Source: Myxococcota bacterium
Lineage (GTDB): Bacteria; Myxococcota_C; UBA6777
Reading direction: 5' to 3'
NCBI GenBank assembly: GCA_023150835.1
Contig: JAKLKB010000055.1
Span: 1-54,619, forward strand
Length of the DNA: 54,619 nt
Positions 18,101 through 54,619 of this stretch are shown in pieces. Position numbers and translations under genes: made by a program. How positions within the stretch are numbered: position 1 is the first letter of the stretch; the number at the start of each line of letters is the position of its first letter. The notes below the pieces were generated by a model. It saw only the letters and a list, made by a program, of their open reading frames with translations. It searched no databases and was not told the origin of the DNA.

Positions 18101-18270
18101 AGGATTTACGCAGTTGGATGGTTTTTGTGGGGTTTCACCCCACACCCCACAAGGGAGCTTTGCCCCCTTGACCCCGTATTGGCGAACAGATCACTGTTTT
18201 TCACGCAGACGGCTCTGTCGCTTGAATGGGTGTGAACACGGGGGTCTTGGGGCTGACTTCGTCAGTCTCA
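18101..18270 (-). repeat. Repeat family C copy with degenerate family-A terminal repeats
   Basis: Begins aggatttacgcagttg (family-A TIR) and ends acttcgtcagtct; body is the reverse complement of the ccgtgttc...ggggtcaagggg-N-cccttg-ggggtgtgggg-N-cccca unit. Confidence 0.75.
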
Positions 18271-20894: not shown

Positions 20895-21059
20895 ACGCAG
20901 GCGCATCTTTTTTCCGACCGTGGCATCTTTTGAGAGCGTGAGGACTCCTGCTGTTTTTTGACAAAAGGCTTCCGCGATATCGATGCGAGTGGCTTGTTCC
21001 CAAAAGGACGGACAGGAGGGGCTTGTTGACGAAACGATGGATAGGAGTCGCTTGTTGGC

Positions 21060-21200
21060 AAAAACCCGTGTTCGCGCTCCTTTAAGCGACAGAGCCGTTG
21101 GTTTGAAAAAATGCTGATTGTTTCGCCAACACGGGGTCAAGGGGCCATCGGTCCCTTGCGGGGCGTGGTACCTCGCCCCACGAAAACCATCCAACGAGTG
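21060..21200 (+). repeat. Repeat family C copy
   Basis: aaaacccgtgttcg...aagcgacagagccg...acggggtcaaggggccatcggtcccttgcgggg...ccccacgaaaaccatccaac. Confidence 0.75.
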
Positions 21201-23627: not shown

Positions 23628-23754
23628 AAAAAATCCCCGTGTTCGTGGGCTTTCAAGCGACAGAGTCGTCTGTTTGAAAAACGTGTGATCTTTTCGCCCA
23701 ACATGGGGTCAAGGGGACGGAGTTCCCTTGCGGGGTATGGGGTGGAACCCCATA
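23628..23754 (+). repeat. Repeat family C copy
   Basis: aaaatccccgtgttcg...aagcgacagagtcg...ggggtcaaggggacggagttcccttgcggggtatggggtggaacccca. Confidence 0.75.
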
Positions 23755-23849
23755 AAAAAACAGAATATGCGGGAGGATGGTGCGCGAAAAAACAGAATAT
23801 GCGGGAGGATGGTGCGCGAAAAAACAGAATATGCGGGAGGATGGTGCGC
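23755..23849. repeat. Intergenic 32-bp tandem repeat x3
   Basis: aaaaaacagaatatgcgggaggatggtgcgcg at 23755, 23787, 23819 with no spacers. Confidence 0.95.
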
Positions 23850-34793: not shown

Positions 34794-36016
34794 CATTCGC
34801 CGAGGATGACTTTGTGAGCGCGCAAACGCAACGCGTTGAGTTGGATGAAGCCCGCTGCATCCTTCTGATCGTAGCCGCCCTCCACATCCATCGAAGACAA
34901 CTCTTGATTGTACAACGAACTCGGCGAGAAACGGCCTTGGATCATCACGTTTCCTCTGTACAATTCAAGATTCACATAACCATCGATCAAACTTTCCGCT
35001 TGGGTGAATGCCGCTCGCAAAAAGTCCATCTCCGGGCTAAACCAAAAACCGTTGTAGATCAACTCTGCAAACTTGGGGGCCAAGCTGTTTCGCAGGCGCA
35101 TGACTTCGCGATCCATCGCGATGCCTTCGAGGTCGCGCAAGGCGTGGTGCAAGATCGTTCCGCCCGGTGTTTCGTACACACCACGCGACTTGATCCCAAC
35201 AAAGCGGTTCTCCACGATATCGATCCGACCGACACCATGAAGGCTTCCAAGATCGTTGAGGTAAGAAAACAACGCCCAAGGCTCTTCTTTTCGTGTCCCA
35301 TCGTCCAAATTTTCCACCGCGACAGGTAACGCATCTTTGAACTCCACCTTCAAACGGCATCCTTCTTCAGGAGCGTTGCGCGGTGAACGTGTCAGCCGAT
35401 AGATATCTTCGGGCGGCGTCAACAGCGGATCTTCGAGCATCCCAGCCTCATAGCTTTTGTGCATCAAGTTTTCGTCCGTACTATAGGGCTTTTCTGCGGT
35501 GGCTTCGACAGGAATCGCATTCTCTTTGGCATAACGGATCAGATCCTGGCGACCTTTGAAACGCTCCAAAAACGAAGACTCTTTCCAAGGAGCGATCACT
35601 TTCAACTGCGGAGCAAGCGCTGCATACGCCAACTCGAAACGCACTTGATCGTTGCCTTTGCCCGTCGAACCGTGAGAAACATATCTCGCGTTTTCTTTTA
35701 ACGCGATCTCCACTTGGCGACGCGCAATCAACGGGCGCGCCAACGATGTCCCCAACAGATAACGACCTTCATACACCGCATTTCCCGCAATCGCCGGAAA
35801 AATGAAATCCGTCACGAACTCTCTTTGCAAGTCTTCGACGTACACCTTCGATGCACCCGTCTCCAACGCACGCAACTTCAAACTCTCAAAGTTTTCCTTT
35901 TGACCCACATCCGCAACGTAAGCGATCACATCATAGCCACGCTCTTGCAAGATCTTCAAAATACATGAGGTGTCCAATCCACCACTGTAGGCCAATACAA
36001 CTTTTTCTCGACTCAT
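34793..36016 (-). CDS. argG: Argininosuccinate synthase
   Basis: [72 protein letters not shown]. Confidence 0.97.
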
Positions 36017-36102
36017 CTTTTGTTTCTCCTTCGCGCCTCTTGCGCTCCAATCCTCGCCTTCTCTCTGCGAACATCGCGCACTTCTCGGCAAACGGTCGCG
36101 TG

Positions 36103-36293: not shown

Positions 36294-36449
36294 CGTTTCA
36301 CATGATCTGCAATACGTTTTGCGTTTGCTTGCGTCTCTCGTTGTTCCTCTACCTTACTTTGCCGAAAAAGCCTTGTCTTTTCAATCCGTAAAAACACGCC
36401 GCCCCCGTTGACTACTGTTTGATTCGACGAAAAAACATACTTTTGATAC

Positions 36450-38342
36450 TTGATGACGGACACTCTCATGGATAAAAAACCAAGTTCTACCGACAAAAAA
36501 AACGATCCAAAGAAGATCCTTCGACGACGTGGTAACGAAGAGGTCGTCTTCGATCCTTCCCAAGAATCCCTCAGCCACGAAAAACTCGACGCCGCCCAAA
36601 ATCCCGAATCCTCCGCACCAAACACTTCTTCCAAATTGCGCCTCCCCCGAAGAAAACTCAACAAACGCGCCCGAAAAGTCCGACCTGCTGAACTTCCCGA
36701 AGAGATCCAAAAAAAAATACAAGACGGCGAAAGCCCCTCCATCCCCCTCCATCCACTCCTTGCGAAGGATTCCCCCATGACCACAAAAAAACGCACCCCC
36801 ACCCCCGACCCGGCCCAAACATCAACCACCCCCAAACGACGCGGACGACCACCCAAACCAAAAAGCGCTACCGATATCCGTTCTCTTCTCAATAATCCCG
36901 AAAAGCTCAAACAAGATAGCAATGCCCTCGTCGATCTCGTCCGCAAAATCGATCAAACTCCCTCTCACGCTGGACCTCGAAAGCGCGGACGTCCCTCCAA
37001 ACACGCGACCCATCTTCGCGGTCTTTTTACCAGCGAAACCCCTCTTTCCGAACGCCCCTCTTCTGATCGGTCTCTCCCCCCATCGACAACTTCTTCGGCC
37101 TTCCCATCCAGCGAATCCGCTACCACTCCCACCACTCCTACCGCTCCTACCACCGACGCAAAACTCGCCGCTTCGCTTGCACAAGCCGCCACTCAGCCTC
37201 CCGCTCCCAAAAAACGCGGGCGACCGAAAAAACAAGTGGACTCCCCCCTCCTTTCGACCGCTGTCACTTTCTCTGATGCAACATCTGAACACCCCACCAC
37301 ACCTTCTTCTCCCCAATTACCACAAGCACCGAGTTCTATACTTTCTTCTCCGTCTTTTCCTGAAACTTCAAACGTTGCTCTTCCTTTGCCGTTGCCCGAA
37401 GCTCCGAAAAAACGCGGACGACCGAAAAAGTCAGAATCCATCGCTTTGATCGCTCCTTCTATACCTCTCCAAAAGCGCGGTCGTGGCCGACCTCGCAAGT
37501 CAGAATCCCTCTCCTCTCTCCACTCTGTTTCTGTTGCGCCCATCCAAACACCGCCATCTCCCGTTGAGCATGATATCCTCCAACCTACCGCTCCATCCGT
37601 CGAGCACGATACCCTCCAACCCAACGCGACAACCGAAACAACAACTGAAACGCCGAAAAAACGCGGCCCGGGTCGCCCCAAAAAATCAGAATCCCCCGTA
37701 CAAAGCACCCCCGTCCTCGCTCTCCAAAAGCGTGGACGTGGGCGACCCCGCAAAAGCCAAAGCCTTGTCTCCCTCCCTGCCCTTGCAAATACAACCAACC
37801 CGACGATCTCTTCGGCTGTTGCAGAATCATCCTCTTCGGCCAACCACTCCCCTCGTCCCGATACCTTGGCCCAAACCCACTCAGTCGCAAACAACACGAC
37901 TGCTGTTGTTGCAGACACGCCTCCAAAGCGCGGGCGTGGGCGACCCCGCAAAAATCCAATCCCCCAACCTTCTCAACACACCAGTCCCCCGATCAAACGA
38001 GGCCCCGGGCGACCCCGTAAAATCGAAAACATTGTCGCGGCTGCTTTCAAAGAGCCACCCAAAAAGCGCGGCCCCGGGCGACCCCGAAAAGCCGATATCC
38101 TTCAACGTCAACGCAAAAAATCCTTGCAAGGCGTTGGACCCGGACAAGCCATCACTTTCCGCGCCTTACAAACTCAACTCGAAGCCCTCCAAGCGTGGCG
38201 TAATAAAGACGAAACTGTCCGCCTGCGCGTCCGCAAAGCCCTTGAAGGCAGCGCAAAACGCACCGACGATAGCGATTATCGCGAAGTGATCGAAACCTTG
38301 ATCTTTAAAATGCTCTATCCCGAAGATCACCAAGGCGAATAA
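36450..38342 (+). CDS. Multi-AT-hook, largely disordered putative DNA-binding protein
   Basis: Ten R/P-GRP motifs flanked by K/R in Ser/Pro/Thr-rich linkers; short helical-looking C-terminus. Start uncertain (TTG 36450, ATG 36453 or 36468). Confidence 0.82.
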   Translation: MMTDTLMDKKPSSTDKKNDPKKILRRRGNEEVVFDPSQESLSHEKLDAAQNPESSAPNTSSKLRLPRRKLNKRARKVRPAELPEEIQKKIQDGESPSIPLHPLLAKDSPMTTKKRTPTPDPAQTSTTPKRRGRPPKPKSATDIRSLLNNPEKLKQDSNALVDLVRKIDQTPSHAGPRKRGRPSKHATHLRGLFTSETPLSERPSSDRSLPPSTTSSAFPSSESATTPTTPTAPTTDAKLAASLAQAATQPPAPKKRGRPKKQVDSPLLSTAVTFSDATSEHPTTPSSPQLPQAPSSILSSPSFPETSNVALPLPLPEAPKKRGRPKKSESIALIAPSIPLQKRGRGRPRKSESLSSLHSVSVAPIQTPPSPVEHDILQPTAPSVEHDTLQPNATTETTTETPKKRGPGRPKKSESPVQSTPVLALQKRGRGRPRKSQSLVSLPALANTTNPTISSAVAESSSSANHSPRPDTLAQTHSVANNTTAVVADTPPKRGRGRPRKNPIPQPSQHTSPPIKRGPGRPRKIENIVAAAFKEPPKKRGPGRPRKADILQRQRKKSLQGVGPGQAITFRALQTQLEALQAWRNKDETVRLRVRKALEGSAKRTDDSDYREVIETLIFKMLYPEDHQGE

Positions 38343-41935: not shown

Positions 41936-42070
41936 CAAAACCCCGTGTTCGCGAGGCTCCAAGCGGAGCCGTTGTGGGTGGAAAAAGCTCTGATCTCTCC
42001 GCCAAAACGGGGTCAAGGGGGCTAAGACCCCTTGCGGGGTGTGGGGCCGCGCCCCACAAATACCCATCCT
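41936..42070 (+). repeat. Repeat family C copy
   Basis: aaaaccccgtgttcg...acggggtcaagggggctaagaccccttgcggggtgtggggccgcgccccac. Confidence 0.75.
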
Positions 42071-52682: not shown

Positions 52683-54119
52683 TTAAGAGAGCGTGTTGTG
52701 CTTGTGGGTGGGGTGAGTGAGCGGGGGGTGGGGAGCGTAGGAGCCAAATAAAAAGGTCAAAGGTCGCCACAAACGGGCAGCCCACGCGCTTTCGGTATGG
52801 TGGGCGTCTGCGTCCAGAAACCAAGCCAGATCTTTGCCGTGTCGATAACCGCTGTGTTCGAGCAGTTCGACCATGCGATGACAACCCGGCATCAACTGGG
52901 TTTCTAGGCCAAGACCGCCGTTGTCGATGTAAAGGCGGATCTCTTTTTTGGGGCCTTTGTAGTGTTCGACCCAAGCGCAAACATCGACATCGAGTTCTTT
53001 TTTGTTGAGAAATACAGGGGAGAGGCATCCCGCTTTGGAAAAGATCTCGGGATGGGACCATGCAAACAAAAAGGAAGCGAGGCCCCCCATCGAAGATCCC
53101 ATCACTGCGGTATCTTCGGGGGTTGGGCGAGTGCGATAACGCGCATCGATCATGGGTTTGATGACCTCGATCACAAAGCGCATATAGGCGTGGCCTTTTG
53201 GCGTGGGTGCGTATTCCTCCAGCCGATCGGGTGTGTTTTTGAGACCGACAACGATCGGAGCATCGATCTTCCCTGATTTGTCGAGGTGTTCGATATTTTC
53301 ATCGACGGACCACTCCACTCCGATATACGAAGTGGCAGGATCGAAGAGATTTTGACCGTCGTGCATATAGAGGACAGGATAGCGGCGTGTCGGATGTTGG
53401 TCGTAAGAAGAAGGCAGCCAAACCAAGACATCGCGTGGGCGCAGGTGCGGGAAAGACATCTTGCGATAGATGTCAAGCCGCCCTTGAATCGAGGGTTTGG
53501 GGCGATAGTCGTGATCCAGCCAGCCCTCAAACGCGATCCCAAAGCTGCCGCTTTTCTTTGAGGCGACATGGACATCGAGAGGGCGTCCGTTGGCATCGAC
53601 GGCAAGCGTCTCGCTATCACCGCGATGGATCTTGAAATGCAGCTTTTCTCCTGCTTTGAGTCGAAGCGTGTTTCTCCAGATCCCATCGGGGTGTCGGTGC
53701 AGGCGCAGTCCATGTTCTGTGTTTTTGAGTTGAGGGTGATCGCCTTGCAAGTAGATCTGATCCAACTCGCTCGGAAGATAGCGCGGTCGGACTTCGATCT
53801 GTAGCGCGATCTCACGTTCTCCCATCGGCCAATCAGCGAGGGTTTGCGGCAAGGGATGTTCTTCGAGCTGTTCTCGCAAATGGACAGGGTGGTGCTTGGT
53901 GTGTTGCGGTGGGAAGGCTGTTTCGGAGGGATGTTCTGAAACCTCGAAACCATCGGTGGGTGCGATGCCTTGCACATCCGAAGCATGGGGCCTGTCTGCG
54001 CGTGCGGTGGTCTTGTCTTTGTGTATCGGCTTCGAGGGAGATCGAAAGGCTGCGTCTGTGCGTGGGGCGGTTTCGTGGGTTGGCGTTTTGGCTGGCGGAC
54101 GTTGCTTGGGGGGTTTCAT
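52683..54119 (-). CDS. Esterase (IroE/Fes-like alpha/beta hydrolase) with N-terminal CBM20-like module
   Basis: IYLQGDHPQL..DGIW..HFKIHRG module; VWLPSSY, YPVLYMHDGQNLFD, GSSMGG, HTESAW. Start uncertain. Confidence 0.85.
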   Translation of the reverse strand: MKPPKQRPPAKTPTHETAPRTDAAFRSPSKPIHKDKTTARADRPHASDVQGIAPTDGFEVSEHPSETAFPPQHTKHHPVHLREQLEEHPLPQTLADWPMGEREIALQIEVRPRYLPSELDQIYLQGDHPQLKNTEHGLRLHRHPDGIWRNTLRLKAGEKLHFKIHRGDSETLAVDANGRPLDVHVASKKSGSFGIAFEGWLDHDYRPKPSIQGRLDIYRKMSFPHLRPRDVLVWLPSSYDQHPTRRYPVLYMHDGQNLFDPATSYIGVEWSVDENIEHLDKSGKIDAPIVVGLKNTPDRLEEYAPTPKGHAYMRFVIEVIKPMIDARYRTRPTPEDTAVMGSSMGGLASFLFAWSHPEIFSKAGCLSPVFLNKKELDVDVCAWVEHYKGPKKEIRLYIDNGGLGLETQLMPGCHRMVELLEHSGYRHGKDLAWFLDADAHHTESAWAARLWRPLTFLFGSYAPHPPLTHPTHKHNTLS

Positions 54120-54481
54120 CGTCAAACTCGATACGGCAAAGGGGAGAGCAAACGAGACACCAAGAGGGCCGAAGGTGCGCTCGGGTGGACGGTTTGCCTT
54201 TTTCGGAGGTTGTGGGGACTTTGTCAAGAGGGGCGGTGTTGAGCGGAGTTTGCTGTTATCCCTAACGAAGTCAACGCGAACATCTTGGGGCTTCTGTCAT
54301 TTTTTTGTCAAAGCGTGTGGGGGGGGGGCTTTGATCTTGACAGGGGTGGGGGAGTTGGCTTCTATTGGCGGGCGTGCAGACGAGATGGCACGTTTTGGGG
54401 GAAAAACGGGTCATGGAGACCCGAAGCACCAGTCGTAGAGTTTGCTGGTATCTGAAACGAAGATGTTGTGAGGAAAAATAG

Positions 54482-54619
54482 GTCAATGACCCACCCCTAA
54501 AGGGGCGGGCTTGTTTCGGCAAGTCCGGTTGACCAGACGACAACAGAGGAAGTGGCGCAAGCCAAGTTGTTAGTAAACGATAGAGAGCATGTAGAGACCC
54601 TCGAATGCCGCCTCAGTTC
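54482..54619 (+). ncRNA. 5' part of a HEARO / IscB-type omegaRNA scaffold (truncated by the window edge)
   Basis: GTCAA..CCCACCCC-TAAA-GGGGCGGG-CTTG..GTTGACCAG..ACCCTCGAATGCCGCCTCAGTTC matches the layout I recognise for IscB-associated RNAs; nested stems are visible directly. Confidence 0.78.
54482..54619 (+). mobile_element. End of a putative IS200/IS605-superfamily (IscB/IsrB-type) element
   Basis: Subterminal hairpin cccaccccTAAAggggcggg just inside GTCAA, typical of Y1 transposase-recognised ends; no protein gene inside the window. Confidence 0.65.

Follow-up and report, generated by a model that had tools for sequence, protein, structure and literature searches.

Weinberg in 2009 and Altae-Tran in 2021 reportedly described the HEARO RNA and the omegaRNA of IscB. 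The Rfam family HEARO, RF02033, is the IscB omegaRNA according to Goltsman (2022, PMC9755519). Kapitonov, Makarova and Koonin (2016, PMC4810608) described ISC transposons of 1.3-1.7 kb from Cyanobacteria and Proteobacteria, including families with GTCA...CG termini that insert at N|ATGA, with CGATGA ends. In the preprint of Meers et al. (10.1101/2023.03.14.532601), the omegaRNA of a Geobacillus stearothermophilus IscB element abuts the transposon right end, the TAM of the Geobacillus IscB is TTCAT, and IscB cleaves the donor joints left by TnpA excision.

We analyzed a window of 54,619 nt, which is the whole of contig C220 (C220:1-54619) of a Myxococcota MAG from activated sludge (239 contigs, 7.56 Mb, 93% complete; G000). 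The window end is also the contig end. A first-pass annotation, made from the letters of the window, had placed the start of an omegaRNA (HEARO) there. Our analysis indicates that positions 54482-54619 are very probably the 5' part of the omegaRNA of a non-autonomous ISC2-type IscB transposon (IS200/IS605 superfamily) of about 1.55 kb, with an N|ATGA target, lying in front of a host ORF. As a transposon the element is of an ordinary, already described kind, found here in a lineage from which it had not been described by name. Because the element class, the RNA, the target and the homing logic are all published, the finding itself will be unsurprising to a specialist.

The likeness to the described systems is close. 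As reported in the main text of PMC4810608 for ISC1-1_MA, ISC2-1_MS and ISC2-2_MS, the termini here are 5'-GTCA...CG-3', the element stands directly upstream of ATGA, and there is no target duplication. As in the N|ATGA ISCs published there, a single gene, iscB, is contained in about 1.55 kb, the element is non-autonomous, and hairpins are subterminal. Unlike the ISCs of that article, the host is a member of the Myxococcota from activated sludge. The Geobacillus stearothermophilus element, as presented in the preprint, shares with ours an omegaRNA that abuts the transposon end, a guide taken from the flank, a non-autonomous lifestyle with TnpA in trans, and a bias to the orientation of the upstream gene; its TAM, TTCAT, is the reverse complement of ATGAA, the motif found 3' of the element here. 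In the Geobacillus system activity, TAM and homing were shown by experiment, whereas here they are inferred, and no TnpA was found in the assembly. The present locus adds to activated-sludge Myxococcota a recently mobile, multi-copy IscB family that is polymorphic within the genus and present in RNA libraries.

Results

The covariance model for HEARO (RF02033) matched 54482-54619 on the plus strand with 34.7 bits (E 1.7e-5) when 54000-54619 was scanned in E-value mode, which bears out the omegaRNA start proposed for the window edge. The match covers positions 1-117 of the 211 in the model and carries a flag for truncation at its 3' side. With default gathering thresholds, Rfam gave no match anywhere in the window; the score of the match is below the 83-bit gathering cut-off because 94 of the 211 model positions lie beyond the contig end. 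One other Rfam family was matched in 54000-54619 up to E 10, upstream and on the other strand (15.4 bits, E 9.2), and was taken as chance. From the RF02033 match, the other copies and covariation, 54482-54619 (plus strand) was assigned as the first 138 nt of the omegaRNA scaffold and as the transposon 5' terminus (GTCA...). Like HEARO, the window RNA matches from model position 1 and its helices covary; unlike the HEARO consensus, the hairpin after the first pseudoknot arm has a longer insert (GUGGCGCAAGCCA).

The helices that had been read from the window were present in it. GGTCAA at 54481-86 faces TTGACC at 54529-34, followed in the description by the hairpins CCCACCCC-TAAA-GGGGCGGG and CTTG-TTTCGG-CAAG, a GACAAC/GTTGTT helix around TGGC-GCAA-GCCA, and a stem, CCCTCGAA...TTC, that is cut by the window edge. 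These helices were projected onto an alignment of 16 omegaRNA 5' halves, 11 of them from other genomes and the rest from this one (the window and 4 further loci). Standard pairs occupied 83.4% of 536 cells compared to 74.4% in shuffles, both-sided changes were seen in 16 of 36 pairs, and none of 500 shuffles attained any of five covariation measures. When the 3' partner was slid by 1-3 columns, pairing fell to 26-48%. The best supported helix was the stem cut by the edge (96.7% paired, double changes at 5 of 8 pairs). The weakest was GACAAC/GTTGTT (67% of cells paired), which overlaps the pseudoknot arm of the Rfam model as well as a shifted hairpin, and competes with that arm.

The low support for GACAAC/GTTGTT is one correction to the first-pass annotation. 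A second concerns its GGTCAA/TTGACC helix, which exists as claimed except that the outermost pair, G54481-C54534, is unconserved (GC in 5 of 16 sequences); base 54481 therefore belongs to the flank, and both scaffold and element start at 54482. The cut stem had been expected to close downstream with roughly GAGG, and sibling copies do complete it: a copy on contig C52 shares the left arm, reaches 25 nt beyond the point where the window ends, and closes the stem with GTTCGGGG, one G-U wobble from GAGG. The minimum-energy fold of 54465-54619 was -50 kcal/mol (z = -2.93), and 1 of 200 shuffles folded as well.

C145 and C106 each carry the last 138-140 nt of the window at one end with 100% identity, C218 and C166 do so with 98%, and copies of 93% identity stand at the C52 end and inside C193. 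The C166 copy begins (C166:6876-6884) with GTCAGTCAA in place of GTCAA, a 4-nt tandem duplication at the element 5' terminus. Right ends matching the element on C193 over 140 nt (98.6-99.3%) were found at the ends of C238, C212, C198, C100 and C171, and C87 begins with 661 nt of the right part of the element. All seven right junctions examined read ...AAAAACG|ATGA. This pattern of five left and five right ends, each including about 140 nt of the repeat, is characteristic of a multi-copy repeat that collapsed in assembly. The genome holds about five near-identical copies of the element, each broken about 140 nt inside the repeat, and the assembly breaks at the C220 end because the element is such a repeat. 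The shortest contig that was kept has 2,391 nt; the interior of the repeat, at about 1.5 kb, falls below this and is therefore absent from the assembly. The repeat accounts for the end positions of C220 and about ten other contigs. Across its 1.55 kb it links C220 with C212, C145 with C100, C166 with C238 and C218 with C87, and probably C106 with C171.

The evidence for these links comes from G001, a genome of the same genus, in which the region upstream of the element in the window is found at 88% identity. There the left flank of the window runs straight on, ...GCGAGGAAAAAAAAG|ATGACACCTGCGG..., into a 334-aa ORF that begins ATGACACC... and that in this genome follows the element right end on C212; C220 and C212 are therefore neighbors across the element. 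Empty sites in G001 also establish the C145-C100, C166-C238 and C218-C87 pairs, and the pairing of C106 with C171 is graded as probable, the start of the ORF in G001 being only similar to that of the ORF on C171. The left flank of C52 had no counterpart in G001 or in G002 (same genus). C52 is therefore paired with C198, which carries metK, by elimination only; the right junction at metK on C198 is read directly. In the reading frame of the C218|C87 pair (GAA G|AT GAC) there is exactly one G between the flank and ATGA. The copy at the C218 end and C87:1-661 sits inside a response-regulator gene, and has the look of an inactive copy that disrupted its host gene.

Taken together, the empty sites in G001 and the right junctions define the element as GTCA...CG, inserted at N|ATGA without target duplication. 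The search for other copies and empty sites that the first-pass annotation had suggested yielded both, and the motif 3' of the element is ATGA(A/C). Hairpins were predicted at both element ends on both strands, and were statistically weak (z -1.6 to -2.0). Reads showed no empty allele; at this site a DNA contig, X9, spans the occupied junction (54322-54502). X9 also shows one further flank that is absent from this genome. In a second Myxococcota MAG, KLAP109, an insertion (L058) and the one in this genome next to C193:33940-33981 are independent events that hit one small region at two points about 45 nt apart. The KLAP109 insertion is at ATGAACGCC and that of this genome at ATGAAGATC, where KLAP109 reads ACGAAGATC.

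The copy inside C193 (33982-35530, 1,549 nt) is a complete sibling, 93% identical to the part in the window. Its HEARO RNA is full length and scored 91 bits, above the 83-bit cut-off that the truncated match in the window does not reach. As is typical of HEARO, in the sibling copies the RNA stands directly upstream of iscB, with its 3' end overlapping the iscB ribosome-binding site and start: on C193 a 432-aa ORF starts inside the last HEARO model positions, behind a GAGAGG ribosome-binding site. This ORF has Pfam RRXRR (201 bits) and HNH (38.5 bits) domains, and IscB chains of solved structure match it with E values of 6e-31 to 1e-28. The resemblance to OgeuIscB and the other solved IscB proteins (PDB 7xht, 7utn, 11hr; E 6e-31 to 7e-29) is best over the N-terminal part, query residues 23-135; in contrast to those chains, which have 495-496 aa, the C193 protein is shorter. 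C193, C226 and C172 each carry HEARO together with an RRXRR frame of 459-541 aa, C226 and C172 being further IscB loci with more distant omegaRNAs, and C135 has a degenerate IscB locus. The first-pass annotation had listed what would count against it, namely no model match, an open stem and no IscB-associated copy in the genome; what we found was a model match, a closed stem, and three loci with HEARO and an RRXRR frame. The window copy would likewise carry iscB, and an intact one, judging from its siblings and from the lengths of RNA- and DNA-library contigs.

Among these contigs, X15 (RNA library, 627 nt) starts near 54438, bridges 54440-54619 without mismatch, and runs 445 nt past the edge. 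It thereby reaches 584 nt into the element, beyond an omegaRNA of about 230 nt. X16 (RNA library, 1,544 nt) starts exactly at 54482, and X18 (small-RNA library, 307 nt) runs from the C106 flank into the element for 238 nt. The library contigs show presence and bridging, and their ends or uncovered parts carry no meaning for transcript ends; since RNA libraries can contain DNA, the contigs from them are not proof of transcription. Downstream of the window edge, where the contig itself ends inside the RNA, the locus would continue in the 445 nt of X15 and in the paired right end on C212.

It is improbable that the window copy is a relic without RNA-guided activity, meaning an omegaRNA that stands alone or has decayed (as a solo end, as a PATE-like remnant or with a dead iscB). 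Such a relic would have company in this genome, where some omegaRNA fragments have no clear IscB with them. Seven of its 11 HEARO matches fall below 40 bits (C37, C68, C180, C179 twice, C169 and C56), and low-scoring fragments of 17-37 bits without a nearby RRXRR lie at C37:582-659, C180:33652-33758, C179:34-180, C169:56157-56285, C56:23677-23744 and C68:19596-19712; these short fragments are probably remnants of older IscB elements. The locus on C135 has a degenerate frame only, the C218|C87 copy, which belongs to the same subfamily as that in the window, has an iscB frameshifted by a 61-nt deletion, and the interior of the window copy is among the parts missing from the assembly. However, the right junction on C212 has the last 140 nt of an iscB-bearing element at 99% identity, and the stretch of X15 inside the element is specific to this locus. 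The 98-100% identity among the five left ends and the insertion polymorphism relative to G001 also point to recent mobility. The alternatives that the structured stretch is an assembly artefact at the contig end, or a cis-regulatory leader (riboswitch or attenuator) of the downstream host gene, can be dismissed almost entirely. The stretch does lie in a 5'UTR, is rich in hairpins and touches the contig end, but it recurs behind unrelated flanks in six further places, the orthologous 5'UTR in G001 lacks it, it matches HEARO, and contigs of independent runs bridge the junction.

As an IscB transposon, the element would take its guide from the flank. The first-pass annotation had proposed that the guide is the sequence just upstream of the scaffold, and this fits the seven copies, whose flanks are unrelated up to the base before GTCAA. 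With an IscB guide length that we take to be 16 nt, the guide here would be TTGTGAGGAAAAATAG (54466-54481, plus strand), which is the end of the host 5'UTR and includes its GAGG ribosome-binding site. Assignment of the guide to the 5' flank at about these positions agrees with the copy-specific flanks and with the account given in the preprint of Meers et al. Upstream, a divergent gene on the minus strand (52683-54227) encodes an ORF with a Pfam Esterase domain. The rest of the intergenic region between the esterase gene and the interrupted host gene (54228-54465, plus strand), also 88% conserved in G001, presumably holds the host promoter and the 5'UTR that would have to drive the omegaRNA. 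A scan of 54150-54619 gave no sigma-70 consensus promoter; TTGACA at about 54339 had no acceptable -10 box. A terminator-like hairpin (CGGGTC...GACCCG, then TTTTT) is present on the minus strand of this intergenic region at 54407-54423.

The window copy sits, as the two sides of the insertion read, between the ribosome-binding site and the ATG of the 334-aa host ORF on C212. The term 'start codon' is absent from the main text of PMC4810608, whereas in this genome the target ATG is a host start codon, opening a frame of at least 180 aa, at 6 of the 8 resolved right junctions. The same was seen at 5 of 6 in the Myxococcales MAG HK-STAS-MYXO-32, at 5 of 8 in KLAP109, and at 3 of 4 in records from Methylococcaceae, Psychromonas, Vibrio and Glaciecola, for a total of 19 of 26 related insertions. 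Five loci whose right end was unlocated were left out of the counts (L050, L053, L061, C226 and C135). By comparison, 19.9% of the 36,735 ATGA sites in this genome open a frame of at least 180 aa. The binomial tail for 19 of 26 was 7e-9, with a background taken from this genome only and with copies in the same genome that are not fully independent.

The interrupted host genes are of several kinds. A Pfam search found no family for the 334-aa ORF on C212; the other ORFs have metal-binding repeats (C100, 975 aa), fibronectin type III (C171, 341 aa), ActD of alternative complex III (C238, 183 aa) and MetK (C198, 385 aa; C198:136-1293, L074), and that on C172 has 323 aa. A Shine-Dalgarno-like motif lies at most 18 nt from the junction in the left flanks paired with five of these ORFs and in the C172 flank; among the five pairings, C106-C171 is probable and C52-C198 is by elimination only. 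On C198 the element right end abuts the ATG of metK, the one gene for S-adenosylmethionine synthetase that the assembly was found to contain. A normally essential gene is therefore separated from its original ribosome-binding site.

Discussion

In the mechanism that we propose, a host promoter would transcribe through the 5'UTR into the element, and the last 16 or so nucleotides of the UTR (54466-54481) would become the guide, fused to the scaffold. IscB, made from the same transcript, would bind this RNA and cut alleles in which the 16-mer stands directly before the TAM ATGA(A/C) (ATGA(C) at the window site), that is, a site that is empty or has just lost the element. Recombination with a sister copy that still carries the element would then restore it. 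Native guides and the ATGA(A/C) motif are readable from the genome, which is useful for prospecting compact RNA-guided nucleases.

Transposition itself would need a Y1 TnpA in trans. No clear full Y1 TnpA was found in this genome, which is 93% complete; there were two marginal partial matches (23.8 and 22.9 bits), the second of which was rescored at 28.9 bits as a 254-aa ORF on C113. Full-length Y1_Tnp frames were present in G002 (125.6 and 123.8 bits) and also in three other genomes of the family, and none was found in G001 (86% complete). Mobilization in trans would be a plausible arrangement.

The frequency with which the element precedes host start codons suggests more than one possible scenario. 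Landing on the start codon could be a working arrangement that holds generally for N|ATGA IscB elements in different phyla, in which the host promoter is borrowed, the end of the 5'UTR serves as the guide, the host ORF is left whole, and the A-rich 3' end (...AAAAACG) lets the host gene be translated from a long co-transcript. We put this forward tentatively, with belief and doubt nearly in balance and doubt slightly ahead. A plainer reading accounts for much of the pattern: insertions within genes are lost, transcription from upstream is needed, and start codons make up a large share of the harmless transcribed ATGA sites. The pattern is compatible with either targeting or selection and cannot separate the two. 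If the start-codon arrangement is true, the element is tolerated even before the only metK copy. Start-codon landing raises the question of how host genes such as metK and the alternative-complex-III gene are translated with 1.55 kb between them and their ribosome-binding site. Full-text literature searches, whose matches were in part represented by the title and the beginning of the abstract, found no paper stating a start-codon rule.

A separate repeat was also observed in this genome. It is an interspersed, structured repeat of about 130-140 nt, with 619 BLAST matches, 534 of them at least 100 nt long, on 194 of the 239 contigs. Copies lie in the window at 18123-18242, 21054-21168, 23629-23796 and 41937-42060, and on C193 at 35897-36035 and 36354-36491. 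The repeat looks REP- or MITE-like, and the partial Y1_Tnp-like ORF on C113 (254 aa, 28.9 bits) might be a transposase related to it.
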